A DNA stretch of 64,000 bases from Psammoneis japonica (taxonomy: Eukaryota), in the NCBI GenBank assembly GCA_008632985.1, contig QPGO01000026.1, forward strand, positions 1 through 64,000, in the 5' to 3' direction. Under the pieces are notes generated by a model, which did no database searches, was not told the origin of the DNA, and saw nothing but the letters and a program-made list of their open reading frames with translations. Positions 19,643-51,802 of the stretch are shown piece by piece. How positions within the stretch are numbered: the stretch's first letter is position 1; each line of letters starts with the position of its first letter. The translations under genes and the position numbers were made by a program.

Positions 19643-19755
19643 NNNNNNNNNNNNNNNNNNNNNNNNNNNNNNNNNNNNNNNNNNNNNNNNNNNNNNNNNN
19701 NNNNNNNNNNNNNNNNNNNNNNNNNNNNNNNNNNNNNNNNNNNNNNNNNNNNNNN
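19643..19755. other. assembly gap
   Basis: run of N. Confidence 1.
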
Positions 19756-26177: not shown

Positions 26178-27938
26178 TTGCAATAATTGCCTGAGATAGA
26201 CAGAATAATTTTGTTGATTTTGAAATTGCACTACTGATTTACAGGTCTGTGAAAAGAAAAGAGTAGCTTTATATGAGCATTTTCCGAATGTCCAAAGCTG
26301 TGCGTATCTGTACCAATGTAGCTTCTATAAATTTGCACGGTGTGTCAACCTTAATGGATCGTCAGCGTCTTCGCTAACATCACAATGACACGTAGCCTTC
26401 TGCCTGTTTCATAAGTCAACGAGTGATGTGACAAAGGCAGCAGAGGTGTGGTAGTATGCCATGAGATGCTGAGTATAGAATGCCATAAGCTTGGCCAGTG
26501 AAATTTTATCTTCCATGTCGAAAAAGTCACTAAATTCCAATGCATCTTCGTTGTAGAGCCAATAAGTCTACCTCAATGGCATGTCGACCCCAAAGATTAC
26601 AACGCTGGCGTCATCCTCATTGCCATTTTTTTGTTCGTCCTCTAACTCACGGCATCAAGGACCGCGAGCAGGAAGGATTTGACATCGAGACAATGCAACA
26701 TGCTTCCGACCGCTTAACACAAATTTTTAATGTGTTTATGTCATAAATGGAATTTGAATCCCAGAAAAATCTTGAAGACACAAAAATCTGCCAGGGCTCA
26801 CGTGAAAATTTGAGCACTTCGGGAAACAAAAATCACGAGATCGCAAGAATGAAACTTTTTCAGAAAAAAGGCAATGAAAGTCTGAATAGCTGAAACATCT
26901 TCAAAGTGGTGGCAACATCAAATTAATTCCGTGTGAATGATGCTGTCTAGATGATGCAATTAAAATCAAAATAAAAAGGGCTGACAGAAAACAGCCCAAA
27001 ACAGACAACAGAGATGATTCCATAAAAAGCAAAAAGAAGAGTTTTAAAAATGCCTGAGATGGACTGAAAAGACAAACCTGGAAATGGCAACAATGGGAAT
27101 TAAGATGAATTATGCTGTGGGGATGATGAAATGAAAAATTAAAAAAGAAAAGTCTGAGTTCTAACAGTTCAAAACAATGAAGATTCGACTGCAGAGATGA
27201 TTCAACATTAAAGTTTTTGACACCCGGACCTATTTTAATGCACGCCCTCATGTCTGTAGAATGCATTAAAATACCATCGGTCCAAATCAAATCGTGTTTT
27301 AGCATGCTAAAAGTGTCGCACCATTTCGGTTCCTCGCCAATCAAAGAAATGAGGCACAACAATTTTCATAATTATATATATTGAAATGAACACACCCAAA
27401 AATCACACCTCATCTTCCGAACAATCCGCCAGATCTTTAACCCCCCCTCCAAATGGATTGAGCAGACTCTCAGCTTTCCATCGATGTATCGCAATGCTCA
27501 AACACACTGGCAACAGTCGGACCCACCAGTGCATTCTTGAAAACATGGAAAAAACAGCAACCAACAGTTGTGCGCTCCAACTGTAATGCCAAATGTTCAC
27601 GCTGTGGACTTGCAGCATCCTCCTCTGAAGTTGCCTCTGTGCTGAACCAACCGACCGACCGCCCAATTGCTGCCCAACAGCACAGCAAACCAGTCTGAAT
27701 GACCGCATGATCACAGCTCAAAACAGACAGGGATGGTTGGACACATTTTGCAACAGTCGAGTGTGGTGAAAAGTGTGCATTTGGTCAAAATCGATCATGA
27801 ATGCTCATTGTGCTACCTTTGGGGGCCCTTCAGTGAGCCGAACACGCCCATTTCTCCTCTGAACATCACATGTCCATCTCACGGAGGTGTCAATTTTGTG
27901 ACCGGGACACATCTTGAAAAAAATTGTCACAAACTTAG

Positions 27939-28426: not shown

Positions 28427-28504
28427 TTAAACCAGCCAAGAAGGTCATTGCAGCTGGAAAAAAAAACACCGGCACCCTGAAGACAGCACAACCTGCACTC
28501 AACG

Positions 28505-29452
28505 ATGGATTTTCAACCAAGCGCACACTTTCTGCCACACCAGAGTGTTGCCTGGTGGATTCGTGGATGTGGTGTTGGTGGGGTGCAACAAGAAAATTTT
28601 GGAAAATGCTTGAGATGAACAAAAAGAGACAAAACCTGGAAATGGCAACAATTGGGGTTAAGATGAGTGGCACTTTGAGAGAATGCCTGAGATGAGCAAA
28701 AAGAAACAGAGTTCATGGATGAAAGTGTCACAGAATCAGCAGTTGCCACGACCTCACCCCTTGATCAACACAAACAATGGGGGAGAGTGGATGGTGTGAT
28801 CTCGTTGATTGCCCTGATGTCTGCAACCACTTTCTTGCCTTGAAAAACAATCTGCACTCAAGAATGGATTTCAACCAAGCGTGCACTTTCTGCCACACCA
28901 GAGTGTCGCCTGGTGGATTCGGGGATGTGGTGTTGGTGGGGTGCAACAAGAAGATTTTGGGAAATGCCGGAGATGAACAAAAAGAGACAAAGGTGGATTC
29001 GGGGATGTGGTGTTGGTGGGGTGCAACAAGAAGATTTTGGGAAATGCCGGAGATGAACAAAAAGAGACAAAACCTGGAAATGGCAACAATCGGGGTCTCG
29101 CCTTGAAAAACAATCTGCACCCAACAATGGATTTCAACCAAGCGTGCGCTTTCCGCCACACCAGAGTGTCGTCTGGTGGATTCGTGGATGTGGTGTTGGT
29201 GGGTGCAACAAGAAGATTTTGGAAAATGCCCGAGATGAGCAAAACGAGACAAAACCTGGAAATGGCAACAATCGGGGTCAAGGTGAGTGGCGCGCTTTGG
29301 GAGAATGCCCAAGATGAACAAAAAGAAACAGAGCCAATGGACGAAAGTGTCGCAGAGTCAGCGGTTGCCACGATCTCACCTCTTGACCAATGAGAGCGGG
29401 CAGTGTGATCTCGTTGATTGCCCTGGTGCACGCAACCACTTTTTTGCCTTGA
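28505..29452 (+). repeat. complex tandem array of a ~260-360-bp degenerate unit (about 3 copies plus a partial internal duplication)
   Basis: atggattt.caaccaagcg..cactttctgccacaccagagtgt.gcctggtggattcg.ggatgtggtgttggtggggtgcaacaag recurs at ~28505, ~28865, ~29128 and partly at ~28992. Confidence 0.85.
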
Positions 29453-29846
29453 GTCTTCCCCAAGATGACAAGCTGGTCGACCTGCACTTGTTTTGCTTGC
29501 ACCGCATCTTTGTCGAGCATCGACGAAGGTGCTCGTGGGTGTTTCCGCACTGCCCTCATTGCCGCTGCACAAGCGGACAATGCACTCCATCTGCTCAGCA
29601 CAGGTGGCGCTGCGGAGCTCAACGACATCCAAGGTCTTTTTGTTTGCCACTTGCAAGCAGATGGCACCATCTGAGTTGGCCTCATCTTTGGCGCCGGCCC
29701 CTTCTTCCAAAGTTTGAAGATGCAAGTTGAAGACCCTCTGGAGCACCGCAACGACCTTGCTGTGGGCAGAGTTGAGAGTGCGAGAAGAGTCGCTGCCTGT
29801 GCTGGCAGAGGGCACATCGCCTGTGCTCTTCTCCTCCACTGCCGAG

Positions 29847-30085
29847 TGTTGCAACCCATCCTTCTGGTGGCTGTTCCAGAGCCACCTCAGTCCTCCAAGG
29901 TCTGATCCTGAGGCCAAAATGGACAAGCTTGTTGTCACAATGCTTTCCAAGAGTTAAAAGAGAACAGTGGCTGCTTCCATCGGCTGTTTTTGTTGCTTCA
30001 CGTGGAGCACATGAGTGCTGACGCATGCGTCTTCTTCACACCATTTAATTTTGGTGTTTGAACTTTTAGCTCACCATTTCCAACA
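29847..30085 (-). repeat. LTR A (3' LTR)
   Basis: TGTTG...CAACA; minus-strand PPT-like cagcaggagtg adjacent. Confidence 0.92.
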
Positions 30086-33000
30086 CACTCCTGCTGACCA
30101 ATGACAAGATTCTTGCCATTTCCAAATTTGACCATCTTGGGCACTTGGATGTTCATGATGGCTTGATGATCAACAATGAACTTTTTACCAACCACTGGTT
30201 TGGTCGTGCAATCTGCCATCATCTTGTCTGTTGGGCAGAACTTGATCTCAAGTTCTCCTCGCTTGATGAGGTCAGCGATGCAAAAACACTTGATGTTGAA
30301 ATGTCTCGTGCGTTTGCCCGAGCTGGCCTTTCCATTTTGTTCCAGTTTCACGCAACTTTGGTTGTCTCGATGCATGATGTTGCGCTCGACTTCAAAACCT
30401 TGAGCTTCAACAAAACGCTTGGTCCAAAGGACCTTTGCCAAAACGTCGTCTCCTGCGACGATCTCTGCTTCTGCAGAACTCCTGGTGTTGATCTTCTGCT
30501 TCGTGCTGACTGATGTGATGACACCTTTTCCAAGGGTCATGGCAGAACCTGTGTGACTTTTATGGTCCGGATGGACTGTGAATGCGGCATCCGTGTGCCA
30601 CTCGATGATGACTTTGTCTCCAGCCGACATGACTGCGACATCAAGCTGGGTTGTCCTGAGGAAATTCATGAGCCTCGCCAGCTTTGGCCAATCCGATTTG
30701 TTCGGATCCTTGACCCTGGTGGAGAGAAAAGCAGTGCCAGGCTGAATGTCCTGTCTGGCTCTCTTGCACACAAACATGCCCTTCATCACAAAAGTGCAAA
30801 ATGCTCGAGCACGCTTGAGATCTAATTTCTTGGCTGTCTCATCCACCTTGTTGAGCTTCTTGCTCCACGGGCAATCCACGTCACCCGACAATTCTTCTGG
30901 GAATTCCTTGAAGAACTCCTTGGCCATTCCTTGCACACAAAGCACCATGTCAACTTGCAGTGCTCCTGGAATGGAGCAATCTAGAGTCATGGCCAGACAG
31001 TCGTGCCTCTTTCCACGCGTGACTTTGACCTTTCCGATCTCATCCGCATGAGTTTTGTCTAACCAAATCTTGAATTCATCGTTGACCTTGCTGTCAACGT
31101 GACTGGACTTCAAATCATCCACATGCCATGTCACCGTGTGTTGTTTTCCATTCACGATGCGGTTGGCGACACATGGATCACAAGGATCAATCTCAAATCC
31201 AATTCCTTCGATGTCTCTGCGGAACTTCTTGTGACAAAGAATGGAGGACACCAGCACTCCGCAGAGCGCCTTCAACATTTCAGCGTAGAGAACCTTGTGT
31301 TTGCCTTCACACACGATGCAGTCCTGGCAAGTGTCTGGATCCAATTCCAGCAACATGTCCACCATCCTTCCACGGATCTTCATGATGATCTTTTCATCCT
31401 TGACCTCGATGTCCGTTTGCACAAATGCGCTCGGGATGTCCGCTGTCACAACGTCTCTGCCTTGCTTGGCATCAATCACTCCTGCAATGAGAACAGATTC
31501 TGTGGATGCTGTCGGACTGGCGGTTTCGTCTTGGTCCATGTGCTCTCGCTGCGTGCTTCCGTTTGCACACAACCTTGACTTGATTCGTCCATCTCTCTTC
31601 TCTGTGAGAAACATGAGGCTCTCCATGGCTCTCTTCCTCTCCAGAGGAGTCATGTCATTGATGTGAATGGGTTTGAAAACCACTCTGTCATGGATTTGCT
31701 TCAGCTCTGACACTGCTGACTTGTGGCCTTCTTCTCCAAACTTCTGGAGTCCTCGTGCCAAGCTGCAAGTCTGAACAAATTGATGTGCTTCTTCATCAGT
31801 GGAAATCGTGCTAACCTTCTCGTTCCACTGACACATTGTCGTGGCCATGATTCTGGCCGTTTCTAAGCTGCACTCTTCTTTTGTGAATGAGCTTGAGTCT
31901 GTAGATGGCATTGGCAGTCTCCCAATCTAACTGGAGGTTTCAGAGTCCTTCCTGCCCTGGATGTAGCAACAGGCTCTTCTTGGACACTTTCTTCGGTTTC
32001 ACTCTGCTCCTCTCCAGATTCGTCATCAGATTCCAGGTCTTTCATTTCGCCGATGATCTCTTGCACTTCCGGAGAGTGTTCCTTCTCTTGTTCCAGCCTC
32101 TGTTGTTCATCAATGTGGTCAATCATGTCGTCGATTTCTTGTGAAATTCCGCTGCTGTCTGATGGTTGAGAACCAACTTCGTCATTGTCTCTGAGATGCT
32201 CATCATTGGAGGTTTCTTCTTGAGTCTCGTCTTGTTCTTCACTGATGTGGCTGGCTTCTTCATCCAATTCTTGTTCTCGAATTGTGTCTTGCAGCTCTTG
32301 ACTAACTCTGTCACAGTCTCCCCAGTCTGGCTCTTCTTCCTCATTGTCTTCAGTTTCAATGTCTTCTTCTAGATCACAGTCTTCGTCTTCAAATTGATCT
32401 TCAGCATGGTCCACTCCTGCAAGCCAAGCACTGTCGTACAAAACAGCTCCAGCACACTTCTGAATCTTGAGACCGTTGGGCATCTTGTTCATTTCAGCCA
32501 AACGATGAACCTGCTTTGTGATGGCGGGAGTGATGGGCACAGGGGTGACCTTGCGATGAGTGATCTTCTTGCCGGTTTGCAAGTGCAGCAACTCATGTCC
32601 AATCTGGTTGCTGTCGGTGGGGCGCAAATGAATGCAATCCAAGGTCCGTGACTCTTGGGTGTTCTTGGGGTCCGGGTCATTGTGAGCTTGCACACAAGTG
32701 CCGGACGTGATCTTGCAGCTCTTGTCACAGTCTAGATTCTTTTGATGGAGAATCATTCTCGGACTGCAATGTTTGGAAACGCCGTGCTTGGCTGGAAAAT
32801 AATTGAGCTTCTTAGCAGCTTCAGTGACCATGACTTCGACCATGAGTTTTGGCAGATGCTTGAATGGCAGCCAATGATGGACTGCCCTGGCACGTTCTTG
32901 AATGACTCGGTTGTTTCTTTCGGCTTCTGGGACATGCTCCTGAGCATTTGCGTAGTTCATCTTTAGATCAAACTTGTCTTCTAGTGCATTCCCAATGGGC

Positions 33001-35260
33001 CTGAATTCGTTGTCGCAACGAATGCGTGTGACCTTCAAATCGGCCTTGTTGCAGACTTGCAGCACATCTTCCAGAGCTTCTTGATGAGTTGGTTGGGTCA
33101 AGTCCTTGAGCGGTTGTGCCTTGCGATAAAAAATGTTTCGTGACACTGTGGTGAGGAATGGCAATCCATTCACCTTGAGGCCGTCCAGGCAAAGAGTGAC
33201 CTTGTGCTGTGCTGCAATGAGCTCCTTCGGGATCTCCACACAGTCTTCCACAACTGGCTCCAGCTTCTGCCTTGTGACCTTGCCTTTTAGACTTCCAATG
33301 TCTGGTCCAAAAATCTTCTCGGCCAAATCTACATCCTCCGTTGTGACGGGATTGTTCTTGATGCTGTTCACGCAAATGATGGCCTTCAGATCATTCACGG
33401 TTGGGTTTCCCAATGCGCGCAACAATTCCCCAGCCCTCTTGGCTTTCTTGAACTGTCGTGGAGTGCAGAACTTCTTGTTCTCTTCCACACTCTGCACAAA
33501 TTGGAGCTGAGTTCCAGTGTCATTTATCTTGGGCTTGTAAACGTGCAGCCCTTTTCCATCCTCCTCGAACCCAACCTTCTTGTTGGGGAGATGAGCGGTG
33601 AATGCGTTGTCTTGTTTAGAATCACTTGTGATTCTGTGTTTCTTCTTCATGTCAGAGTGAGCAAAAATGTTGGTGATTGCATCTGGGTCAAACCAAGTCT
33701 CGCCAAACCCTGGCACCATGGCCTTGTGTGTCGTGACCAGGACTCCGCTGTTGGTGTGCAAACGCATGGCTTCATCCGACGGAGGATGTCTGTGATGAGC
33801 TTCTCATTGCAGAAGATTGTGGTTGTTGTGGTTGTTGTGGTTGTGGACTGGTTGTCCAACAAAATCCAGTCTCTCATGCTGCCAGATTGATCCTGGTAGA
33901 GAGACACATCGATGTGCATGCCAGCCCATCCTGAAACAGTGGATTTTGTTCCAGTGGATTCTTTGGTGGAAGAGTTGGCTGCACTGGCATCGTCACTTGG
34001 CTGAGCATTGCTTGCTTCTTGCTCAGCTTTGGCCTTGTTGATGGCCCATTCTGCTTGAGGTTTTCCTTGCCTTTCCCAGCACTTGTTGGAATTGTGTCTG
34101 GCCTTGCCACAGCAGCAACACTTGCCTTCTAACTGAGCGAAGGACAGCGTGATTTCTTGGTTTTCTTCTTGTTTCTTGGAGTCAGAGTTGTTGTTTCGAT
34201 TGTTCCTGTTGCAGCAGTTGTCAGGCTGACCAACGTAGTCAAAAGTGTGGTTGCTCAACACCGTGTTGGCTTCCGCAACAGACTTGGGATGTCAGTCGTT
34301 CTTGAGGGACTGCTGAGTGTTCAATCCTGTTAGAATTGATCCGCACTTGCACTGGTCTGCGTTCTCCAAGTGCGCGCAACCCATCAATTGGCTGAGCGCC
34401 TTTTCTTGACACTTCTTGATGGAATCCGCATTGTGCTCATCGCATTCTGACATGCCTTGCACTGCCTTGGTGAGGACAATTGGTCCTCCAACATGAGACT
34501 TCATGATGTCCCTTGCAACCCTGAATCTCTTGGCACAATCTTGGAGACTCTCCTTCTCCTTCTGCTTGGTTTCCAGCACCGCTCTCATTGAATCTGAGAT
34601 GACAGCCATGTCACACCTGTGCTCTTGGCAGTTCAATGCATGCTCCTTAATGGCCTTGAGCAATTCAATGGGATTGTTTTCAATTTTGGTTTGGAACTCG
34701 GTTCTTGCTTGAATCTTGTTCTTCATGGCCTTGGAGCATCTCTCCCAGAGCAAAGCACAAGCCTTGATGAGGTTGTTCTCATGAGTTTGGGTCCTCTCAA
34801 TGTGAGCATCAAATTCTGTCTTGAACTCAATTTCACACTGTTTGTTCAATGGCACATCCACCTTGTCATCTCCTCCAGTCAAGCTGACCTGCAAAGTTGG
34901 CTTCTTAGAACTCATGTCACATGGAGTGCAAGTGTTGAGTGCAGCTGCAATGTCACCTCCAAACTCACAAGTCTTCTCAATGTAGTTGATGATGAACTCA
35001 GTGGCAATCTGAAAATCAGATGCTTGCTTGGCACTTCCAACATGGCAGACACAATCATTGATGCCCTTGTGGCTTTGCTTGCCACTCTTGTTTCTCCTTC
35101 CTGAGGGTCCTCTTCCTTGGCTTCTGTTGCCAGTTCCACCTCTGCCTCTTCCACTCATGACAAAAAGGCAAAGCAGCAAAATGTCTCACACACTGTGAGA
35201 ATGACTCTTTTCTTTCTTGCTTTCTTTTCACAGCTCTCAGCTGGATTGTTCTCTTTTGGC
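30086..35260 (-). pseudogene. copia gag-pol copy A, frameshifted
   Basis: ORFs 34292-35179, 33647-34261, 31863-33767, 29998-31911. Confidence 0.92.
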
Positions 35261-35498
35261 TGTTGCAATTTGTCCTTCTGGTGACAGTTCCAGAGCCACC
35301 TCAGTCCTCCAAGGTCTGATCCTGAGGCCAAAATAGACAAGCTTGTTGTCACAATGCTTTCTAAGAGTCAAAAGAGAATGATGACTGCTTCCATCGGCAG
35401 TTTCAGTGCCTCACGCAGAGCACATGAGCGCTGGTGCGTGCGTCTTCTTCGCGCTGTCTAATTTCGGTGTTTGAACTTTTAGCTCGCCATTTCCAACA
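35261..35498 (-). repeat. LTR B (shared central LTR)
   Basis: Aligns with LTR A and C; PPT of copy B on one side, leader of copy A on the other. Confidence 0.92.
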
Positions 35499-38400
35499 CA
35501 CTCCTGCTGACCAATGACAAGATTCTTGCCATTTCCAAATTTGACCATCTTAGGCACTTGGATGTTCATGATGGCTTGACGATCAATGATGAACTTTTTA
35601 CCAACCACTGGTTTGGTCATGTGGTCTGCCATCATCTTGTCTGTTGGGCAGAACTTAATCTCAAGTTCTCCTTGCTTGATGAGATCAGTGATGTAAAAAT
35701 GCTTGATGTTGAAATGTCTCGTGCATTTGCCCGAGCTGGCCTTTCCATTTTGTTCTAGTTTCATGCAACTTTGGTTGTCTTGATGCATGATGTTGCGCTT
35801 GACTTCAAAACCTTGAGCTTCAACAAAACGCTTGGTCCAAAGGACCTTTGCCAAAACGTCGTCTCCTGTGACGATCTCTGCTTCTGTAGAACTCCTGGTG
35901 TTGATTTTCTGCTTCGCACTGACTGATGTAACAACACCTTTTCCAAGGGTCATGGCAGAACCTGTGTGACTTTTGTGGTCCGGATGGACTGCAAATGCGG
36001 CGTCCGTGTGCCACTTGATGATGACTTTGTCTCCAGCCGACATGACTGCGACATGACTGCGACATCAAGCTGGGTTGTCCTGAGGAAATTCATGAGCCTC
36101 GCCAGCTTTGGCCAACCCAATTTGTTCGGATCCTTGACCCTGGTGGAGAGAAAAGCAACGCCAGGCTGAATGTCCTTTCTGGCTCTCTTGCACACAAACA
36201 TGCCCTTCATCACAAAAGTGCAAAATGCTTGAGCACGCTTGAGATCTAATTTCTTGGCTGTCTCATCCACCTTGTTGAGCTTCTTGCTCCACGGGCAATT
36301 CACGTCGCCCGACAATTCTTCTGGGAATTCTTTGAAGAACTCCTTGGCCATTCCTTGCACACAAAGCACCATGTCAACTTGCAGTGCTCCTGGAATTGAG
36401 CAATCCAGAGTCATGGCTAGACAGTCGTGCCTCTTTCCACGCGTGACTTTGACCTTTCCGATCTCATCCACGTGAGTTTTGTCCAACCAAATCTTGAATT
36501 CATCGTTGACCTTGCTGTCAACATGGCTAGACTTCAAATCGTCCACATGCCATGTCACCGTGTGTTGTTTTCCATTCACGATGCGGTTGGCGACACATGG
36601 ATCATGAGGATTGATCTCAAATCCGATTCCTTCGATGTCTCTGCGGAACTTCTTGCAATGAAGAATGGAGGACACCAGCATTCCGCAGAGCGCCTTCAAC
36701 ATTTCAACACAGAGAACCTTGTGTTTGCCTTCGCACACAATGTAGTCCTGGCAAGTGTCTGGATCCAATTCCAGCAACATGTCCACCATCCTTCCACGGA
36801 TCTTCATGATGATCTTTTCATCCTTGACCTCGATGTCCGTTTGCACAAATGCGCTCGGGATGTCCGCTGTCACAACGTCTCTGCCTTGCTTGGCATCAAT
36901 CACTCCTGCAATGAGAATGGATTCTGTGGATGCTGTCGGACTGGCAGTTTTGTCTCGGTCCATGTGCTCTCGTTGCGTGCTTCCATTTGCACACAACCTT
37001 GACTTGATTTGTCCATCTCTCTTCTCTGTGAGAAACATGAGGCTCTCCATGGCTCTCTTCCTCTCCAGAGGAGTCATGTCATTGATGTGAATGGGTTTGA
37101 AAACCACTCTGTCATGGATTTGCTTCAGCTCTGACACTGCCGACTTGTGGCCTTCTTCTCCAAACTTCTGGAGTCCTTGTGCCAAGCTGCAAGTCTGAAC
37201 AAATTGATGTGCTTCTTCATCAGTGGAAATCGTGCTGACCTTCTCGTTCCACTGACACATTGTCATGGCCATGATTCTGGCCGTTTCTAAGCTGCACTCT
37301 TCTTCTTGTGAATGAGCTTGAGTCTGTAGATGGCATTGGCAGTCTCCCAATCTAACTGGAGGTTTCAGAGTCCTTCCTGCCCTGGATGTAGCAACAGGCT
37401 CTTCTTGGACACTTTCTTTGGTTTCACTCTGCTCCTCTCCAGATTTGTCATCAGATTCCAGGTCTTTCATTTTGTTGATGATCTCTTGCACTTCCAGAGA
37501 GTGTACCTTCTCTTGTTCCAGCCTCTGTTGTTCATCAATGTGGTCAATCATGTCGTCAATTTCTTGTGAGATTCTGCTGCCGTCTGATGGTTGAGAACCA
37601 ACTTCGTCATTGTCTCCGAGATGCTCATCATTGGAGGTTTCTTCTTGAGTCTCGTCTTGTTCTTCACTGATGTGGCTGGCTTCTTCATCCAATTCTTGTT
37701 CTCAAATTATGTCTTGCAGCTCTTGACTAACTCTGTCACAGTCTCCCCAGTCTGGCTCTTCTTCCTCATTGTCTTCAGTTTCAATGTCTTCTTCTAGATC
37801 ACAGTCTTCGTCTTCAAATTGATCTTCAGCATGGTCCACTCCTGCAAGCCAAGCACTGTCATACAAAACAGCTCCAGCATGCTTCTGAATCTTGAGACCA
37901 TTGGGCATCTTGTTCATTTCAGCCAAACAATGAACCTGCTTTGTGATGGCGGGAGTGATGGGCACAGGGGTGACCTTGCGATGAGTGATCTTCTTGCCGG
38001 TTTGCAAGTGCAGCAACTCATGTCCAATCTGGTTGCTGTCGGTGGGGCGCAAATGAATGCAATCCAAGGTCCGTGACTCTTGGGTGTTCTTGGGGTCCGG
38101 GTCATTGTGAGCTTGCACACAAGTGCCGGACGTGATCTTGCAGCTCTTGTCACAGTCTAGATTCTTTTGATGGAGAATCATTCTTGGACTGCAATGTTTG
38201 GAAACGCCGTGCTTGGCTGGAAAATAGTTGAGCTTCTTAGCAGCTTTGGTGACCATGACTTCGACCATGAGTTTTGGCAGATGCTTGAACGGCAGCTGAT
38301 GACAGACTGCCCTGGCACGTTCTTGAATGACTCGGTTGTTTCTTTCGGCTTCTGGGACATGCTCCTGAGCATTTGCGTAGTTCATCTTTAGATCAAACTT

Positions 38401-40669
38401 GTCTTCTAGTGCACCCCCAATGGGCCTGAATTCGTTGTCGCAACGAATGCGTGTGACCTTCAAATCGGCCTTGTTGCAGACTCGCAGCACATCTTCCAGA
38501 GCTTCTTGATGAGTTGGTTGGGTCAAGTCCTTGAGCGGTTGTGCCGTGCAATAAAAAATGTTTCGTGACACTGTGGTGAGGAATGGCAACAAATTCACCT
38601 TGAGGCCGTCCAGGCAAAGAGTGACCTTGTGCTGTGCTGCAATGAGCTCCTTCGGGATCTCCACGCAGTCTTCTACAACTGGCTCCAGCTTCTGCCTTGT
38701 GACCTTGCCTTTTAGACTTCCAATGTCTGGTCCAAAAATCTTCTTGGCCAAATCTACATCCTCCGTTGTGACGGGATTGTTCTTGATGCTGTTCACGCGA
38801 ATGATGGCCTTCAGATCGTTCACGGCTGGGTTTCCCAACACGTGCAACAACTCCCCAGCCCTCTTGGCTTTCTCAAACTGTCGTGGAGTGTAGAACTTCT
38901 TGTTCTCTTCCACACTCTGCACAAATTGGAGCTGAGTTCCAGTGTCATTTATCTTGGGCTTGTAAATGGGCAGCCCTTTTCCATCCTCCTCGAACCCAAC
39001 CTTCTTGTTGGGGAGATGGACGGTGAATGCGCTGTCTTGCTTAGAATCACTTGTGATTCTGTGTTTCTTCTTCATGTCAGAGAAAGCAAAAATGTTGGTG
39101 ATTGCATCTGGGTTGAACCAAGTCTCACCAAACCCAGGCACTGTGGCCTTGTGTGTCATGACTGGGACTCCGCCATTGGTGTGCAAACGCATGGCTTCAT
39201 CCGATGGACAGACGTCTGCAACGAGCTTCTCGTTGCAGAAGATTGTGGTTGTGGACTGGTTGTCCAATAAAATCCAGTCTCTCATGCTGCCAGATTGATC
39301 CTGGCAGAGAGATGCATCGATGTGTGTGCCAGCCCATCCTGAAACAGCAGATTTTGTTCCAGTGGAGTCTTTGGCAGAAGAGTTGGCTCTGCACTGGCAT
39401 TGTCACTCGCCTGAGCGTTGCTTGCTTCTTGCTTAGCCTTGGCCTTGTTGTTGGCCCATTCTGCTTGAGGTTTTCCTTGCCTTTCCCAGCACTTGTTGGA
39501 ATTGTGTCCGGCCTTGCCACAGCAGCAACACTTGCCTTCTAACTGAGTGAAGGACAGCGTGATTTCTTGGTTTTCTTCTTCTTTCTTGGAGCCAGAGTTG
39601 TTGTTTTGATTGTTCCTGTTACGGTGGTTGTCAGGCTGACCAACGCAGTCAAAAGTGTGGTTGCTCAACACCGTGTTGGCTTCCACAATGGACTTGGTGC
39701 ATTGGTTGTTCTTGAGGGACTGCTGAGTGTTCAATCCTGTTAGAATTGATCTGCACTTCCGCTGGTCTGCGTTCTCCAAGTGCATGTAACCCATCAATTG
39801 GCTGAATGCCTTTTCTTGACACTTCTTGACAGAATCCGCATTGTGCTCATCGCATTCTGACATGCCTTGCACTGCCTTGGTGAGGATGATTGGTCCTCCA
39901 ATGTGAGACTTCATGATGTCCCTTGCAACCCTGAATCTCTTGGTGCAATCTTGAAGACTCTCCTTCTCCTTCTGCTTGGTTTCCAGCACCGCTCTCATTG
40001 AATCTGAGATGATGGCCATGTCACACCTGTGCTCTTGGCAGTTCAATGCATGCTCCTTAATGGCCTTGGGCAATTTGACAGGATCGTTTTCAATTTTGGT
40101 TTGGAACTCGGTTCTTGCTTGAATCTTGTTCTTCATGGCCTTGGAGCATCTCTCCCAGAGCAAAGCATGAGCCTTGATGAGGTTGTTCTCATGAGTTTGG
40201 GTCCTCTCAATGTGAGCATCAAATTCTGTCTTGAACTCAATTTCGTGCTGTTTGTTCAATGGCACGTCCACCTTGTCATCTCCAGTTGAGCTGTGACCTG
40301 CAAAGTCGGCTTCTTAGAACTCATGTCACATGGAGTGCAAGTGTTGAGTGCAGTTGCAATGTCATTTCCAAACTCACAAGTCTTCTTAATGCAGTCGATG
40401 ATGAACTCAGTGGCAATCTGAAAATCAGATGCTTGCTTGGCATTTCCAACACAGCAGACACAATCATTGATGCCCTTGTGGCTTTGCTTGCCACTCTTGT
40501 TTCCCCTTCCTAAGGGTCCTCTTCCTTGGCTTCTGTTGCCAGTTCCACCTCTGCCTCTTCCACTCATGACAAAAAGGCAAAGCAGCAAAATGTCTCACAC
40601 ACTGTGAGAATGACTCTTTTCTTTCTTGCTTTCTTTTCACAGCTCTCAGCTGGATTGTTCTCTTTTGGC
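35499..40669 (-). pseudogene. copia gag-pol copy B, frameshifted
   Basis: ORFs 40256-40588, 39282-40271, 37702-39285, 35950-37692, 35411-36043; 11-nt duplication (gacatgactgc) near 36040-36060 shifts frame. Confidence 0.92.
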
Positions 40670-40907
40670 TGTTGCAATTTGTCCTTCTGGTGACAGTTCC
40701 AGAGCCACCTCAGTCCTCTAAGGTCTGATCCTGAGGCTAAAATAGACAAGCTTGTTGTCACAATACTTTCTAAGAGTTTAAAGAGAACAATGACTACTTC
40801 CATTGGCAGTTTCAGTGCCTCACGTAGAGCACATGAGCGCTGACGCATGCGTCTTCTTCACGCTATCTAATTTCGGTGTTTGAACTTTTAATTCACCATT
40901 TCCAACA
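40670..40907 (-). repeat. LTR C (5' LTR)
   Basis: TGTTG...CAACA; retains more TpA than LTR A or B. Confidence 0.92.
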
Positions 40908-42689
40908 CCTTTGCTCCTTTGCTGTTGGAAGAAGGGTTGGACGAATGACTGCCACTTTTCGTGGTCTTTTTCTTGTTGCTTGGTGGCAGGTTGCACCTCC
41001 CACGACCAAGTCACTGTTGGCCTTGTTGGAGCCACCAGCGCCGCTTTTCCTGCGCGGCATGGACCTGGCCTTCTTGGTGGACAACTTGCCAACTGAGTTC
41101 TTTGCAGCAGTCTTCATTGTGGAGGTGTTGAAAGTGATGCCGTGCAACTTGTGAGATTTTCCAGCACCGCTCTTGGCAATGAATTTCTTGTGAGCAGCGG
41201 CAGCGACAGCAGCAATTTGCATGATTTGCAGGTGGGTCTGCTGGGTTCACCCCTGGCCTCACAGTCTTCCTCTTGGTGGCACCCTGAGCAGCACAGGAGG
41301 GTCAAGCTTGCAATTGACAGTGGGAGAGACAAGGGGCAGAGACACCGGCACACTTCATGATGTGCAGCCACCACTTCTTGCATTGCGCGCTGCAGAGGAC
41401 AGTGGGTTGCCGATTGCAGCATGCATGCCAGTTGTTGCAAAAGGACCCAGTTGTCATTGCACAACAGCCAAGCACAGAACAACCAACAAAGTGAGTGAGA
41501 TTTGCACAGTCTTGTGACATTGGCTCAAAATGATGATGGAATTCCGCAAGCATGCATTTCATGTGTGGGGCCAACACAAGTGCACCTCCACTGGGTTTGA
41601 GAGGTGCCTTTGCTTTGCAAAAAGAAAAACATGAGCCTGTCATGAAGGCTTCCCCAGAAACAGCAGGGCTCTTGTGCAGCTGCTTCCTGAAGCCAAAGAA
41701 CCTGATCACCTCCAAGCAAATCTTTGTCTGGAGTGTGGGTTCTGTCTTTAGCAAGTGACTGGTCCAAAGTGTGAAAGAGAGTGCCTCTCAGCAATCCACG
41801 AGTGCAGCTTGCTTGCAGACAAGGAAAACAACACAATGCCAAACAAGCACAAGACACTTGGCAGAAATGCAAGTGCAGGGGCTGACTTTAGGGCCAAGAA
41901 CACAGTGCCAAACAAGCACAAGACACTTGGTGGCAAAACAAGCACAGGGGTTGACTTTGAGACCAAACAGCAGTGCAGTGTGTGCGCAGCCAAAAAGATG
42001 TGTGTTTCCATCATCTGCACTGTGCTTGAGTGCACAGCAGGCCTGCACAGAAGGGGGCAAGCAAAGTGACTCAACACAATGAATCATGGTCCTGTGGAGA
42101 TGGTGCTGGGGCAGCATGCAAGCACAAGTCTTTTTGGTTCAATGCAAGCAGGTGTTGACAGCAGCAGCAAACATCATGTGAGAAAACAGCAACATTCAGA
42201 AAACAACCCTGACATCACACCCAACAACTTCAACTTGGGCTCCAAATGAATCACACACAAGGCACATGATGGTCAGACCCATCATCTCAATGAAAGAGCT
42301 CTCATCTGGATGGCGGCACATCGGACGACAAACTTTGGCAAGAGTGCTGGTGCTGGCCAGCACCCTGTCCATCACAATGATGCAATGTTCCAAACAGAGC
42401 TGTTGGAAATTGGCTCATTGCATCATTGGAAGAGTTGCTGCACAGAGTCAAGGTGCAAAAATGGAGCTTGGAAAGGTCCTTGATGCACCAAGCAGTGATT
42501 TTGCAGTGGGGTTACAGCACAAAAGGAGCCAAGGCAGGACATCAACACCTTGTGCTCACCAGGTGTGTGGATGATTGGGATGTGGGCAAGCACAAGATGT
42601 TGGCTCAGTCACCTGAGCTGCTGCTTGTGGTGGCAATCTGAGAACCTCTCAGAAAGAGGAATGCCAGAGCAGTGCACCAAGACACCATT

Positions 42690-44620
42690 CAATGGAGCAG
42701 CACTGTGAGAAAGCCCAAGGGGGGGCAGTCAGGCACATCTCTGACCACACAAAAGGTGAAGTGCTTGCACCAGATGATGTTGATGAAAAGACCAAGGACA
42801 CCATGTTTGAGGCACTTCAGATTAAACATCTGAGTCAGAGGATTCCAGAGGAAGATCATTTTCACAAGTTTGGTGAGCTGCCCAAACTCCAAGTTGTCGC
42901 CATTGCCAACAGCACCATCAAGACTGTCATGCAAAGACTGTTGGGGAGTGCAGGCCTCAGCAGATCTGATTTTAGCACAGCATCACAGCGGCTTTTCCAC
43001 CACTGTGGAAAGGCCAGCAGAGTGCTTTGAGAAGTGTTGTGCATGTTCACGAGCTTGCTGGCAAACAAATCACCCCCATGGGCCACTTGCCACACACTCA
43101 TGGCAAAGCAACTCACTGCACCAGACAAAAATCCAGGTGTCTGTCTGGTCAACATGGGGGAGGTGTGGCAGCAAGCCGTGGCTGAAGCTGGCTTGATTCA
43201 TGCTGTGAATGTGCTCTGGGGGCAACACAAATTTGAGGATGTCTTTGGATTTCTTTTTGTTGATGCTCCAACAGATTCGATGAAGAGAGTGGGGCCCCAA
43301 TGTTGTGCAATGTTGGGCACCTTTGGCCATCTGGCACTGGGCTCACCTTCAAGAATTGTTGCAAGCATTGGAGCACCCCAATCATCCGAGGACACTTTGG
43401 CAACACCTTTGTGCCATTCAGCAAAGAAGGTGTTACACAGGGCAGTGGCAGCCCCCACTTGGTGCAGCAGCTCATGGACTGAGATGATTTCATCCACTGG
43501 TTTGAGAGATGAGCAAGCATTTCAAAGATGTGCTCACCTCATCTTGGCACACTGACAACTCCACTGCAGCAGGAAAATTTAATGCCCTGCCTGATTTTTT
43601 CTTGATTCTCCAGGCTGAAGGCCCCAAGCATGGGTGCTGCACAGCCAACAGCTCCAAGAACAGCATCTCCTCAGCAGCCCCAAAATGCAACCTGGAAAAT
43701 GCCAGGGTGCACTTTGGGGACCTCGGCTTTGCTGTCAAATCTGGCGGGAGATGGATGATGTGCACATGGCGGCTGGCTGGCACAAGCTGAGTTGTGGACC
43801 TCGGTCATCCAAGGACTCACCAAGGTTGCAGCCCACCACCCCCAGGCAGAAGTCTCTGCAACACCAGTGGCAGCATGTCCACTGCACAGCTGAGGACTGT
43901 GGAGAATCACCAGTGGATGAAGCAGAGCGTGGCACAGCACAAATTTCTTCCAGCGCCAATCAGCAAGACTTTGGTGGTGGATGACAACCCAAGACCAGCC
44001 CCATCTGCCTTTCCAACAAAATTCTTGGGACTCACCATCCCTTGTGCAATGGAGTCTGTGGCTCAAAACTGCAAAGTGAGCACTCTCATGTGCTCACACA
44101 TGACCGACTCACTTCACGGGGCCGCTCCCCCAGCTCTCTTCTGCAGTCCACAAGGACACCATGTGCAAAGTGAACCAAGAAATGGCTGAAAGGAAAGTCA
44201 AAGTGCGTGAGGAGACCCTTGAAATGATCCTCAGGACTCTGCCTTGCCTCAAGGCCAGAGCTGTCAAGCGCAGAACCAAAGCTGGAGCACGGCTGCCTGC
44301 ACGCCCATCGACGCTGAATGGCGCAGAACTCTCAAGCCAAGAGCTCCATGATGCACTCTGTTTGCAGCATGGCAGCACTCCACCAGACCTCCCTGAGCAT
44401 TGTGATGGGTGCGGCCACAAATTCTCCATCAGCCACGCCTTTCAGTGCAAGAAGGGTGGCCCAGAGTCATCTCACGACATGATGAAGTGTGTGACAACCT
44501 TGGCGACCCAATTGGAAAGGCTTGCAAGCCTTCCTGCACATGTGACAAACCTCTGGTCAACCCTCCTGTTGGTCACATCTTGGGAAGCCCAGGCAACTGT
44601 GACAGCTCCTCAGGCAACAC
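42690..44620 (+). mobile_element. decayed non-LTR retrotransposon (RT plus Cys/His motif; CRE/R2-group-like)
   Basis: Fragments across frames: LTAPDKNPGVCLVNMGEVW, GFLFVDA, KEGVTQG, WHTDN (cf. WYADD), GPKHGC (cf. GPxYGY), KFLGLTIP, LNGAELSSQELHDALCLQHG..CDGCG..HAFQCKKGG..SRHDEV. Confidence 0.75.
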
Positions 44621-44959
44621 AAACACCAACAAGTCCAAGGATGGCGAACGTGAGATCTTCTTGCCATGAGATTTTGGGATGGAAGGACAGACAACATGGT
44701 GACGGATGTTTGCACGCACGCACTCATGCAGTCTTCGCTCACATTCGTTCCAGATGTGGATGCGAAAAAGCGCAAGCTCTGTGCTTTTCTCAAGCCGAAG
44801 CCCTTGTTGCAAAGCAGTGCTGTGATGGTCAAATGACGCTGACAGACAACACCGGCAGACACAACTGGCATTGCCTGAAACAACAACATTGATCCCACAC
44901 ATTTGTTCCAACGTCGTTTCAAGAATTGCTGCAAAATGTTCGATCCCTGTACGACACGA

Positions 44960-45361
44960 TGTGAGAACATGCATGTGTTCATGTGTCAGCATGCCATCAA
45001 GTCCTGCGTGTGACAACGACCGCTCAGAAACCGCCATCAACCACCATCAACGACTCACCCAATCACAGCTCGAGAAACGAATGAGATCGGAGGTCTTGGG
45101 TTCAAATCGAGAATTGAGCCTCACTTCTTCTTTTCTTTTATGCAATCAAGAACTTCTTGTTCCTGCCAAGTCTTTTCACTGCATTCATCTGTGTTGAGTT
45201 CGGCACAAATGCGGGTCACTTCTCGTTCTTTACAAACTCTTGTTGGTTGTTGAGTGGAGCAGTTTTTGTTCCCACAATTTAGCGGCTGGTCAATTCGCAC
45301 CTCCTGAGTTGTCTGTTGTTGCTGTTTCTGTCTCTGCGGCATAAACTGCCACATGCCCACA
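44960..45361 (+). repeat. 5' LTR (heavily TpA-converted)
   Basis: Aligns to 51414-51802; differences are dominated by TA versus TG/CA. Confidence 0.95.
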
Positions 45362-45450
45362 TGCTTCCTCTGCGCTGTGGAGACCTGACTCAGTTCAAAA
45401 TTGTTGCAGAAACCAGAGCCCAACATCATGGACGCCGAAACGACGACATC

Positions 45451-48400
45451 ATGAACGCCAAACAGATTGCAGCCGTGATTGCTGCAGCCATTCCCGCCGC
45501 CATCCAACCTCTTGTCAATGCCCAGAACAACCCTCCAGCTGGCAACTTCACTTGCTCACCAGCCTCAGCACGTGATGCACTGCTTGACTGCAGTCACCGA
45601 GGCGATGCCAACGCATTCAAGACATCCACTGAACCTCTTCCAACCACGTTCAACACCCAGAAGCCTGACATCCGAGCATTGCTCGATGAACTTCGTACAA
45701 GGTCCAAAGCTTTTGGTTGGAACGACATCCCAACGATCAACGTCAATGAGGGAGTGGCTGACGCCACCGCTGAAAACCGGAACATGCTCACATCCTGCGG
45801 AAACATCACACCGGAACAGATCCGCACGGTGTCCGCTGCTTGCACAAACAGGCAGAATCGTGAAACCCAGAACAACTGTCAGCTGTGCCTGTGCCTTCAC
45901 AACTTGGTGGATGAAGCCACCAAGCAAGTCATGGCCAATGAATCCAAGCAGCACTGCATTGGAGACATGGATTGCAGGGCATTGCACCTCAAAATCCTGC
46001 TCTCGAAGGCCGAGATTGATGCTCGCGCTGCAGCCTCCCATGTCCGCTCCGAGCTCGCATCCCTGGACAAGCACATGGTCGATGCAGCCAACCACGATGT
46101 CAAGGCATTCAACGAGCACGTGAGGGACCGGATCAAATCCCCATCAAGCTGAGGAGAAATGTCCAACGATCTCATCACGAACCCATTTGAGGGACATGCA
46201 GCGTGCACGGACAAGAACTTCACAAAGTGCACGGAGAAAATCAACGACGACTGCGATGATGGAGTCGACATTGCCCGTGAGCAACTCATGATTTGCGCTG
46301 AGAAGAAATGTCAAGCCCTCGTCCTCAACGAAAAGTGGAACGAACCAACCGAGGAACAAGCGCAAATTGTCGCTCTTTGCGCCAAAGTGAACGACCTCCG
46401 GAACCAACGCTCGCGCAAGTCACCCCAGACGCGTTCCAGCCCTAGGTGGGAGCTCGTAGTGCTGACGTGTGACACAAATAATTTTTATCATCCGTGGTAT
46501 GTTTTGCACGTACATTTCGACGTGTGATATTTAATAAAAATTGTCCAGACTCGCTGTTTTGCGAAGCCCCAGACGTTTTACATAACGAATTTATAGAAAC
46601 AATAATGCGCCAGTTACATTCTTCAATGTCTGAAGAATGTAACTGGCTAAGTAAAAAATGATGTACTTCAAAATTGCCTCATTTTCTGTTGGCGAACATT
46701 GACATTTAATTACCGTATAATTTTACTACGGAGCTCGCACGTAGAATTCTACGGGCCCAATGTCACACGGATTCCCACCTACGTCTGGAACGCGTCCCCA
46801 GCGGTCATCGGGCCAGAAACCTTCCAACGCCAGCCAGGCCAAGAAGTCCTCAAGCGCCACCAAATGCAAGAAAGGTGAAAAACCAAAATTTGAAGGAAAA
46901 TGGACTTGGCGCGGCGTCGAACCTCAGCCCGGAGAACCCAAAGTGAAGACCTTTGAGGGAGAAGAATGGAAGTGTTGCGACTTCCACAAGCACTGGGGAC
47001 AGCACTTGAGCAAGGACTGTCATGCCAAACAGAAAGCTGACAACTGGAACTCCGGCAACCCGAACCAGCCGACGTCCGACGCTCTCACCGCTTCCATGGC
47101 AAACATCGGCATCAACGACATGACTGGACAGGCCCAAGGCGAGTGAAGGTGGTGGTCAGGTTTGGAGATGATCTGTGCCACACTGCTTGTTGCACTGTTT
47201 GCGATCTTGGCTTGCACTGATGAAGTTGTGGACACCATTCTGATGAAAGCAATTCCCATCGCAGCCAACGTGATCAGCAGTGCATGTGATCCATTGCACT
47301 CCTTGTCTGACTTAGCCAAGCCCTTCCACGTCAGCCTAAATCCCAAGCCAAGAGTCCGAAGACCTCAGAGTCGGTGCAAGCGAGGCTCCACTTGCCGCCG
47401 CCGACATGTCCGACGCAAACGTGGAGCACGTGTCATGCACAAAGTCGTCGAGGTCCATGTGACCTGTGAACCAGTCATCGGATGCTCCTCCACCACCGAT
47501 GCAGAATGGTGCTCAACCTGCAACAACCACAGCTGTGACGCCAACTCGTTCCTCATTGGCATCGATGACCACGCCTCCCACTGTCTGACCAACTCGATGT
47601 CGGACTTCATCCGGACACCAGCAAAGGTCCACGTCAACGTCAAGGGTGTGTCCGGCAACGCATCGACCTCACACAAAGGAACTGTTTGTTGGCCCATCCA
47701 AGACAACCTCGGACAAACACACAACTTGAATGCACCTGGCGTCTGTTGTGCACCCAACCTCCCGATCCGGCTCCTGTCTCCGCAACATCTGGCTCAAGCT
47801 CTCAAGCCACAAGAGCACACCCAGGAAGGCACTCGTGCTACAACCACGAGCAACCACACTGTCTTAGAGTGGATGGACCGAAAACACACGCGGTTGGTCC
47901 CCCTCAACAAAAGCAATGTTGGTGTCTTTTGCTCCGCCCCTTCTTTTACGTCCCTTCAGGCGTCATGCGAAACATGCGACTGTCGTCGTGACGAAAACTT
48001 TTGTGCATTCCGAGCACACCTCATTCCGCCCGACGATGACACACCCGATGCCACTGTTGCTCACAATCATGCTCCTCCGCCCGACGGGGTCTCGGATCAT
48101 GCCAAGCAACCCACTGTTCCGACTCACACTCCGGTTGACGAAGCACCCGACGATGCAACTAGCCCGAACGAGAAAGCCATCCATGCGGATCAATCAACAC
48201 CTCCGTCCAACCCCAATGCAGTCGAATTCAACCCATCAGAGGACGGATCAGAGGGTGAACAATTCATCAAAAATGAAGAAATCATCACGCCTGCGAATCC
48301 ATCCCACGAACTGCTGCTTTGGCACTGTCGACTCGGTCATCTCCCATTTTCGCGCATGCAAGCTGTGGCTTGCAGTGGAGACCTGCCTCGTCGTCTGTCA

Positions 48401-51413: not shown

Positions 51414-51802
51414 TGTGAGAATATACATATATTCATGTATCAGTGTGCCATCAAGTCCTACGTGTGACAATGACCGCTCAGAAACCGCCATCAACCACCA
51501 TCAACGACTCACCCAATCACAGCTCGAGAAACGAATGAGATCGGAGGTCTTGGGTTCAAATCGAGAATTGAGCCTCACTTCTTCTTTTCTTTTATGCAAT
51601 CAAGAACTTCTCGTTCCTGCTAAGTCTTTTCACTACGTTCTCGGTACAAATACGGGTCACTTCTCGTTCTTTACAAATTCTTGTTGGTTGTCGAGTAGAG
51701 TAGTTTTTGTTCTCACAATTTAGCGACTGGTCAATTCGTACCTCCTAAGTTGTCTATTGTTACTATTTCTATCTCTACGGCGTAAACTACCGTATACCCA
51801 CA
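51414..51802 (+). repeat. 3' LTR (TpA largely retained)
   Basis: tgtgagaatatacatatattc...actaccgtatacccaca. Confidence 0.95.

Follow-up and report, generated by a model that had tools for sequence, protein, structure and literature searches.

Loss of TpA dinucleotides on both strands of a dead tandem Ty1/copia retrotransposon in the diatom Psammoneis japonica

Introduction

How can a retrotransposon lose nearly all of its tyrosine codons without acquiring stop codons in their place? This question is raised by a 64,000-nucleotide stretch of the genome of the diatom Psammoneis japonica (NCBI GenBank assembly GCA_008632985.1, contig QPGO01000026.1, positions 1 to 64,000 of the forward strand; hereafter the window), in which a Ty1/copia element, with its coding sense on the minus strand, fills positions 29847-40907 as a tandem dimer in the order LTR-internal-LTR-internal-LTR (LTR, long terminal repeat). 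A preliminary description of the locus pointed to peptides in which one unit (A) reads Cys where the other (B) reads His, and proposed that both residues arose from Tyr, by TA to TG and TA to CA changes that hit the two copies independently and on either strand after the tandem had formed. Here we compare the units with each other, with their LTRs, and with relatives of the element. We consider it probable that two both-strand transition processes have acted on the DNA of this repeat domain, a dominant one converting TpA to TpG or CpA, and the ordinary decay of methylated CpG.

Results

The two copies differ at opposed TG/CA sites

To compare the units, A and B were aligned over 5431 columns, 39 of them with gaps. 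The alignment contained 5124 identical columns, 250 transitions and 18 transversions (95.0% identity), and 205 of the 268 differences fell within the dinucleotide set TA, CG, TG and CA. One copy had TG and the other CA at 45 sites (29 + 16). When the differences were shuffled 2000 times among columns of the same base, opposed sites of this kind arose 2.3 times on average and 9 times at most, and the count that the preliminary description had called for is thus far above chance. The remaining pairs were CG against TG (46), CG against CA (40), TA against TG (10) and TA against CA (19), with TA unchanged in both copies at 27 sites and CG at 98. The ratio of observed to expected TpA was 0.10 in A and 0.14 in B, TG and CA were enriched to ∼1.6, and the CpG ratio was 0.44-0.47 in the two copies.

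The four Cys/His peptide pairs were found where they had been placed, in the reverse transcriptase (RT) frame at codons RT231/232, RT249, RT547/549 and RT573. At RT231/232 the ancestor had Tyr twice in succession, where A now has Cys-His and B has His-Cys. The LTR site with three states was also recovered, at LTR alignment column 157 (TG in LTR1, CA in LTR2, TA in LTR3), and a second site with the states TA, TG and CA lies at column 196; LTR3 keeps TA at both.

A pattern of this kind might be produced during assembly or base calling, if chemically modified TpA were misread and the true DNA were still TA, and the one sequencing run found to contain the stretch, a DNA run (X1) with 0.42 of the sampled words, is probably from the source sample. 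Two runs of the same sample had almost none of these words, and no RNA run was among those listed. However, a deterministic error would repeat itself in identical local sequence, whereas the copies are opposed at 45 sites and carry the same product at many more. The pattern also follows a genealogy, with LTR2 and LTR3 closer to each other than to LTR1 and with both shared and private changes. We therefore regard such an artefact as very improbable. In all, 646 short contigs span the 30 bins of the stretch, those of A also matching B, and k-mer contigs of X1 match the sequence exactly across 31227-31344 and 40735-40832; they are not independent, and were used neither for nor against an artefact.

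Tyrosine is the ancestral state

Ancestral states were inferred column by column from homologues, using for the RT an alignment with 120 diatom RT proteins. Relatives carried Tyr at the named columns, in 85 of 120 at RT231 (Phe in 33), 119 of 120 at RT232, 117 of 120 at RT249, 83 of 118 at RT547 and 106 of 115 at RT573, and Arg was present in none at any named Cys/His column. The idea that the relatives natively encode Cys or His at these positions, on which the proposed direction would have foundered, therefore failed. A further candidate, in which a YVDD motif became HVDD, was ruled out, since His is native at that position in all 120 relatives.

The survey was extended to gag, integrase and RT, where 55 columns have Tyr in at least half of the relatives. 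The states of A and B at these columns were Cys in both (20), His in both (11), Cys opposed to His (9), one Tyr kept (5), Tyr in both (3), and other combinations (7). Only 9 Tyr codons per copy remain among 1728 codon columns, while control residues were retained (Phe 26/29, Trp 10/10, Arg 28/31 and 27/31, Asp 34/35 and 33/35). Tyr accounts for 3.72% of residues in relatives and 0.16% in copy A. The relatives themselves appear unmutated: in 13 Tyr columns examined across the 120 proteins, 1439 of 1490 cells were Tyr, 2 were Cys and 3 were His, and at most 2 of the 13 columns had changed to Cys or His in any one relative. All six polarised single-step differences between TA and TG ran from TA to TG, and none in reverse. 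With Tyr at the named columns of the relatives and these six steps agreeing, the proposed direction, TpA to TpG or CpA, is established.

Comparison of two copies gives no direction by itself, and at four TA sites LTR3 stands apart from the other two LTRs, so that a process like repeat-induced point mutation (RIP) could be imagined to have made TpA by C to T changes in the less mutated copies. This reversal is refuted, and we give it almost no weight: Tyr is ancestral, TpA is depleted rather than enriched and TG and CA are in excess, the three-state LTR sites could be reached from TG or from CA only in two steps, and the copies have no stop codons in common.

CpG decay is a second component

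The codon argument of the preliminary description, that Cys and His codons each lie one step from Tyr and two steps from each other, holds in so far as opposite products need separate hits after the copies split. It is insufficient alone, because the same codons are equally one step from Arg CGY, and a CpG ancestor therefore had to be tested with relatives. An opposed site was polarised when the column held at least 25 relatives and one ancestor's residue was present in at least one quarter of them and at least three times as often as the other's. By this rule, the 43 coding opposed sites comprised 18 derived from TpA, 8 derived from CpG and 17 that were ambiguous. Two of the CpG class illustrate it. 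At IN450 (numbered in the integrase), Cys in A and His in B derive from Arg CGY, the 83 relatives having Arg in 47, Lys in 25 and Tyr in 0. At IN311, Trp in A and Gln in B derive from Arg CGG, with Arg in 90 of 118 relatives; TA in the ancestor of this pair would have meant a stop. Single steps at CpG ran from CG to CA 14 times and from CG to TG 5 times, with 7 in reverse. Of the changes that could be polarised, CpG decay accounts for 8 of 26 opposed sites and 19 of 43 single steps.

Could decay of methylated CpG be the only process, with every Cys/His pair descending from Arg CGY? The shared codon distance, the eight CpG-derived opposed sites and the CpG deficit of both copies speak for it, as does CpG methylation of diatom LTR elements, described in the portions of the published accounts available (PMC2806351, PMC9998398). 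As sole cause it is refuted, and we retain it as a second component only: relatives have Tyr and no Arg at the named sites, 18 of the 26 polarised sites derive from TpA, and CpG decay cannot remove TpA. In one relative recovered from metagenomes (L061), the observed/expected ratio of CpG is 0.08 and that of TpA is 0.51.

If TA were restored at every opposed site, as had been suggested for reconstructing the ancestor, roughly three sites in ten would receive the wrong ancestral state. Since the two kinds of decay share their products, repeats that are rich in TG and CA and poor in TpA are not to be "de-mutated" by one rule. Five of the metagenomic relatives (L061, L055, L044, L045 and L080) are strongly depleted of CpG (0.08-0.37) and ordinary in TpA (0.48-0.60); from loci of this type it follows that CpG decay proceeds without TpA erasure in other diatoms. 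Within columns 175-227 of the LTR alignment, LTR2 has CpG at three sites where LTR1 and LTR3 have CpA, plus one further A to G difference. These LTR2-only CpG sites look like A to G changes outside TpA rather than parallel CpG decay.

TpA loss depends on flanking bases and affects both strands

As a family baseline we used the 80 relatives from metagenomes, which were fetched by two search patterns. Their median observed/expected TpA was 0.64, and none lay below 0.3, the lowest value being 0.48. TpA density was 50.8 per kb in these relatives and 8.6 per kb in the dimer, so that 17% was left. Survival varied with the flanking bases, being 0.048 for TAT/ATA, 0.169 for TAC/GTA and 0.519 for YTAR (chi-square 98, P 4e-22). 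Within the first of these classes, no ATAT was left, compared with 1646 in the relatives. Comparing TpA-poor with TpA-normal DNA across the window gave the same ranking. Tyr codons were nearly wiped out because the process prefers TAY.

By the genetic code alone, a change of TpA to TpG or CpA abolishes the stops TAG and TAA and can never create a stop from a sense codon. The chemistry makes no new stops, and the reading frames consequently stayed open while the protein was ruined. As a side observation, 65 stop-to-stop open reading frames (ORFs) of at least 80 residues overlap in the 12.5 kb from 29000 to 41500 on both strands, many of them antisense to the element; this abundance is expected if TAA and TAG have been erased and only TGA remains.

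Changes that arose after the copies split had produced 55 TG and 64 CA, indicating that the strands were hit about equally. The symmetry first proposed is, however, only approximate, as Cys outnumbers His by 29:16 in copy A (binomial P 0.07). No strand-coordinated tracts were detected. The number of runs was 34 in A, compared with 31.3 after shuffling, and 28 in B compared with 27.4; at the opposed sites, 20 runs were seen and 21.6 expected from shuffling. This random order of products argues against the long one-strand editing tracts of APOBEC or ADAR hyperediting.

TpA loss is confined to repeat-derived DNA in the window

The dimer lies in a TpA-poor domain that extends beyond it on both sides. 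To its left TpA is dense as far as 28428, and to its right the density recovers at 46443; a single TpA lies between 28429 and 29954. A local tandem-repeat array adjoining the dimer on the left is also stripped of TpA, and a related 80-base piece (27029-27108) sits in TpA-normal DNA. A pair of ∼400-base repeats, 88.6% identical, has one member inside the domain (44960-45361) and one outside (51414-51802). Comparing inside with outside, TG stood against TA at 17 sites and CA against TA at 6, with 1 site in reverse, and the TpA counts were 5 and 27. The changes in this pair are biased to one strand (17:6), unlike those in the dimer. Other copia remnants lie in further TpA-poor blocks. A run of 113 N (19643-19755), which marks an assembly gap, also falls within a TpA-poor block. 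An ankyrin-repeat gene has been spared, lying in TpA-normal DNA with a ratio of 0.3-0.5; within this window, TpA loss is thus confined to repeat-derived DNA.

These observations bear on whether the changes were made in RNA rather than in DNA. If an ADAR-like enzyme had edited A to I in transcripts, and reverse transcription had fixed the edits, then A and B would be separate edited insertions. Retroelements do pass through RNA, and ADAR-type enzymes prefer a 5' U, a preference noted in the available text of a preprint on the chlorarachniophyte Bigelowiella natans (bioRxiv 10.64898/2026.01.13.699255). However, both strands were hit about equally and without tracts. One LTR is common to the two units, and many of their Tyr codons have been ruined identically, which points to duplication, as DNA, of an already mutated copy. 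Tandem repeats beside the element that are not retroelements have also lost TpA, and the repeat copy inside the domain is mutated while its partner outside is not. Editing of RNA is, on this evidence, highly improbable.

TpA was lost both before and after the duplication

Opposed Tyr columns must have been hit independently after the tandem formed, and for these the preliminary description was right. Most of the Tyr loss, in contrast, is shared: 31 columns are in the same state in both copies and 9 are opposed. Independent hits, with 63% of products Cys, predict that 53% of columns would be in the same state (P = 0.0014); the preceding base shifts the Cys/His outcome mildly, which by arithmetic raises the expected share to ∼0.56. 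The same arithmetic divides the 40 doubly changed columns into ∼19 that were hit independently and ∼21 that were already changed in the common ancestor. The excess of same-state columns therefore indicates that about half of the Tyr loss predates the duplication.

Every frame break is private to one copy, and no stop codon is common to both (lesions are listed in Table 1). The ancestor therefore had one open gag-pol frame from which about half of the conserved tyrosines had already gone. The LTRs differ at 31 columns between LTR1 and LTR2, 29 between LTR1 and LTR3, and 18 between LTR2 and LTR3, a pattern from which it follows that time elapsed between insertion and duplication. After the split, by our arithmetic, each copy lost between two thirds and four fifths of its remaining TpA, about three in ten CpG, and ∼0.6% of other sites. 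At 20 sites TpA survives in B alone and at 9 in A alone, so that A carries the heavier mutation load. The counts of TpA left are 33 in A and 44 in B, and, with the LTRs included, the mutation load rises from right to left across the array.

The simplest course of events that would account for these data has four steps. The element would have inserted as a single copy, and a first phase of TpA loss, before any duplication, would have removed about half of the conserved Tyr codons. The mutated element would then have been copied at the DNA level, unequal exchange between its LTRs being the simplest route. In a second phase, each copy would independently have lost most of the TpA that remained, and hits on opposite strands of the same TpA within a Tyr codon would have given Cys in one copy and His in the other. 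No crossover point could be placed in LTR2, where columns private to LTR1 and to LTR3 interleave.

The array consists of two dead copies of a diatom Ty1/copia element

The internal regions are ∼5.17 kb each, and the LTRs, of 238-239 bases, start with TGTTG and end with CAACA on the plus strand. The last ORF of each unit matches PF07727 (RVT_2, the copia-type RT; 34.3 bits for A, 35.8 bits for B, cut-off 31.6), and this domain is present in all but one of 120 protein relatives listed. Pfam gave no match in the gag or integrase ORF. For the integrase ORF, a sequence profile searched against PDB returned only weak zinc-knuckle matches (E ≥0.14) and did not detect an integrase. The structure predicted for ORF 33803-31863, upstream of the RT (mean predicted local distance difference test score, pLDDT, 68.7), matched retroviral integrases in a fold search, with a best match at E 6.4e-08 and 345 matches at E ≤0.001; it was this search that settled the integrase label. 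The resulting gene order of gag, integrase and RT/RNase H is that of Ty1/copia. Among the closest proteins listed, at 47-63% identity, are named ones from the diatoms Fragilaria, Nitzschia, Epithemia and Attheya.

No target-site duplication was found, the 5 bases before 29847 and after 40907 being different; it may have gone through mutation or through the way in which the array was formed. We conclude that a diatom Ty1/copia retrotransposon, now dead, is present here as two copies in tandem. As a copia-type diatom element with gag, LTRs, and an integrase upstream of RT/RNase H, it resembles the CoDi Ty1/copia-like elements, as these are presented in the accessible part of their description (Maumus et al., 2009, PMC2806351). 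It differs from them in being a dead tandem dimer. Copy A alone has an in-frame 18-base expansion at 33816 that encodes a run of Thr.

Table 1. Features of the dimer and its surroundings (positions in the window; codon rows give the coordinates of the residues discussed in the text).
Feature	Position	Strand	Remark
LTR1	29847..30085	minus	3' LTR of the array in sense orientation; the LTR that has diverged most; 3 TpA left
Internal A	30086..35260	minus	gag, integrase, RT/RNase H
Copy A gag	35185-34292, running on to ~33787	minus	
Copy A integrase	~33782-31927	minus	
Copy A RT/RNase H	31926-29998	minus	
LTR2	35261..35498	minus	middle LTR, common to both units; 4 TpA left
Internal B	35499..40669	minus	second unit
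LTR3	40670..40907	minus	5' LTR of the array in sense orientation; least mutated; 11 TpA left
Copy A lesions	stop 34294-34292; 1-base deletions near 33783 and 31880	minus	
Copy B lesion	A position 32279, B ~37704	minus	TGA where A has CGA
Copy B insertions	11-base near 36037; 2-base near 39386 and 40291	minus	
Codons RT231/232	A 31236-31231, B 36656-36661	minus	adjacent pair
Codon RT249	A 31182	minus	named Cys/His example
Codons RT547/549	A 30288, 30282	minus	named example
Codon RT573	A 30210	minus	named example
IN450	32454..32456	minus	Cys (A)/His (B)
IN311	32871..32873	minus	Trp (A)/Gln (B)
TpA-poor domain	28430..46440		contains the dimer
Local tandem-repeat array	28488..29452		adjoins the dimer on the left
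Further copia remnants	1700-4039, 47147-51386		RVT_2, gag_pre-integrase; in TpA-poor blocks
Ankyrin-repeat gene	53447-56620		in TpA-normal DNA

Discussion

A candidate agent and a passive alternative

What kind of agent removes TpA in this way? The dominant process changes A:T to G:C at TpA, acting fastest where the A is followed by T, then by C, and slowest before a purine. Enzymes of the TadA/ADAT type deaminate A34 of tRNA, which always follows U33, and early adenine base editors preferred YAC. These preferences fit a 5'-T-A-Y target, and by this analogy they offer a lead rather than a test. Judging from the mutation signature, the agent may well be an enzyme, most plausibly an adenine deaminase of the TadA/ADAT type acting on DNA and directed to repeat chromatin, although we put the chance of this at a little under even. 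Going further, diatoms might carry a heritable defence that edits adenine in DNA and is directed by chromatin, in which a TadA/ADAT-like deaminase reading 5'-T-A-Y would hit repeat domains repeatedly and kill retrotransposons through their Tyr codons without making stops. This broader proposal is tentative, and we hold it to be possible rather than probable.

The loss might instead reflect a passive bias of repeat chromatin at TpA on both strands, with no dedicated deaminase, if modified thymine or adenine mispaired at TpA or if repair were error-prone in silent domains. Sequence comparison has singled out no enzyme, the absence of strand tracts is as compatible with many independent events at single sites as with an enzyme, and the A:T to G:C changes that lie outside TpA (13 of 43 polarised single steps) could belong to a general bias. 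On the other side, the ranking of contexts is sharp, from TAT through TAC to YTAR, the edges of the domain are defined within a few hundred bases, and the loss is near saturation; taken together, these features look like the work of a protein that recognises a short motif. In addition, the process in B. natans switches on and off among lines, according to the available text of the preprint (bioRxiv 10.64898/2026.01.13.699255). We consider a passive bias unlikely, while giving it much more weight than the artefact, RNA-editing or RIP-like explanations dismissed above.

Observations that weigh against this account

Several observations weigh against the account given here, and we bring them together. 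The enzyme, and the mechanism as a whole, have been read from a mutation signature. Of the two patterns that fetched the metagenomic relatives, one contains Tyr, which biases the baseline against mutated copies. At 17 of 43 coding opposed sites the relatives gave no clear ancestor. The 13 of 43 polarised single steps that changed A:T to G:C outside TpA comprised 6 from CpA to CpG, 1 from TpG to CpG and 6 others, and may represent either leakage of the same agent or background; only 1 of the 43 steps was G:C to A:T outside CpG.

The distribution of changes along the units is also uneven. The middle (31347-33347) has 9-16 differences per 500 bases, and the regions near the ends have 27-47; the same middle holds 16 of the 27 sites that are TA in both copies. 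Its low divergence could be due to gene conversion or to locally weaker mutation, and gene conversion there could have inflated the class of shared Tyr changes on which the early phase depends. Models with one rate and independent hits fit poorly, leaving an excess of sites that are TA in both copies and an excess of double hits, and mutation rates must therefore differ among sites. From the dinucleotide table, such models predict by arithmetic ∼13 opposed sites and 45 were seen, and they were rejected. Finally, with no target-site duplication at the flanks of the array, a simple sister-chromatid exchange is unproven.

Comparison with known systems

The best match to the signature of the dimer is the hypermutation restricted to TpA that has been described in B. 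natans, combined with ordinary CpG decay. In that alga, as far as the available text of the preprint goes, the process acts on integrated DNA of giant viruses and virophages and is live in mutation-accumulation lines, and the authors hypothesise that an ADAT-type adenine deaminase acts on DNA (Mettrop et al., bioRxiv 10.64898/2026.01.13.699255). By the same text, both systems show transitions from TpA to TpG and CpA on both strands, confined to foreign or repeat-derived DNA, in clusters poor in TpA and rich in CpA and TpG, and RT domains are enriched among the low-TpA genes of B. natans. There are also differences. The host is a chlorarachniophyte there and a diatom here, where the target is a dimer of an LTR retrotransposon together with a tandem array, and the evidence here is historical, coming from sequence, in contrast to the mutation-accumulation lines. 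The dimer retains 17% of the TpA density of its family, compared with about half in the viral region of B. natans. A ranking by flanking bases is given here, and the words "trinucleotide" and "flanking" are absent from the main text of the preprint. Moreover, TpA is the only target reported in that text, in contrast to the 13 of 43 polarised changes found outside TpA in our data.

Other mutators of repeats share some of these features. RIP, in Neurospora and other ascomycetes, likewise produces transitions on both strands at one dinucleotide, is associated with repeats, inactivates transposons and can reach into their flanks. However, RIP makes TpA, from CpA and TpG, and creates stop codons, while here TpA is destroyed and no stops are made; nor is there any sign at this locus of a premeiotic stage or of dependence on duplication. 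Hypermutation by APOBEC or ADAR resembles the present case in its context-specific transitions of the deaminase type that ruin retroelements. It differs in that the edits fall on a single strand in the course of reverse transcription, or on RNA, and form coordinated runs, while here both strands were changed after integration and without runs. Decay of methylated CpG yields TpG and CpA and is present here as the second component, but it gives no account of the loss of Tyr codons or TpA, and relatives depleted of CpG retain their TpA.

Literature searches found no description of TpA erasure in diatoms. The word "diatom" does not occur in the available text of the B. natans preprint, and the relevant terms for TpA erasure are absent from the available portion of a 2025 preprint on diatom transposons.

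Implications

There is one report of a mutator that attacks the TpA of invading DNA, in the available text of a 2026 preprint on an unrelated alga (bioRxiv 10.64898/2026.01.13.699255). A near-saturated signature of TpA loss in a diatom retrotransposon widens the range of the process to a major group of phytoplankton. The dimer serves as a natural experiment, in which two units that were once one sequence allow the direction of change, its two phases, its rough rate and its flanking-base preference to be read. By arithmetic, the rate at TpA is several-fold above that of CpG decay at the locus and about two orders of magnitude above that of other sites. What this locus adds is the two-phase history, a measured mixture of TpA and CpG origins among opposed sites, and a context baseline specific to the family, and the flanking-base preference provides a fingerprint for finding the enzyme. 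There is also a practical consequence, in that repeats mutated in this way contain many long but spurious open reading frames that may be picked up by gene finders. If an adenine-editing defence does exist in diatoms, the presence of the same signature in a rhizarian alga means that the system could have an early origin and a wide distribution across the stramenopile, alveolate and rhizarian (SAR) lineages.

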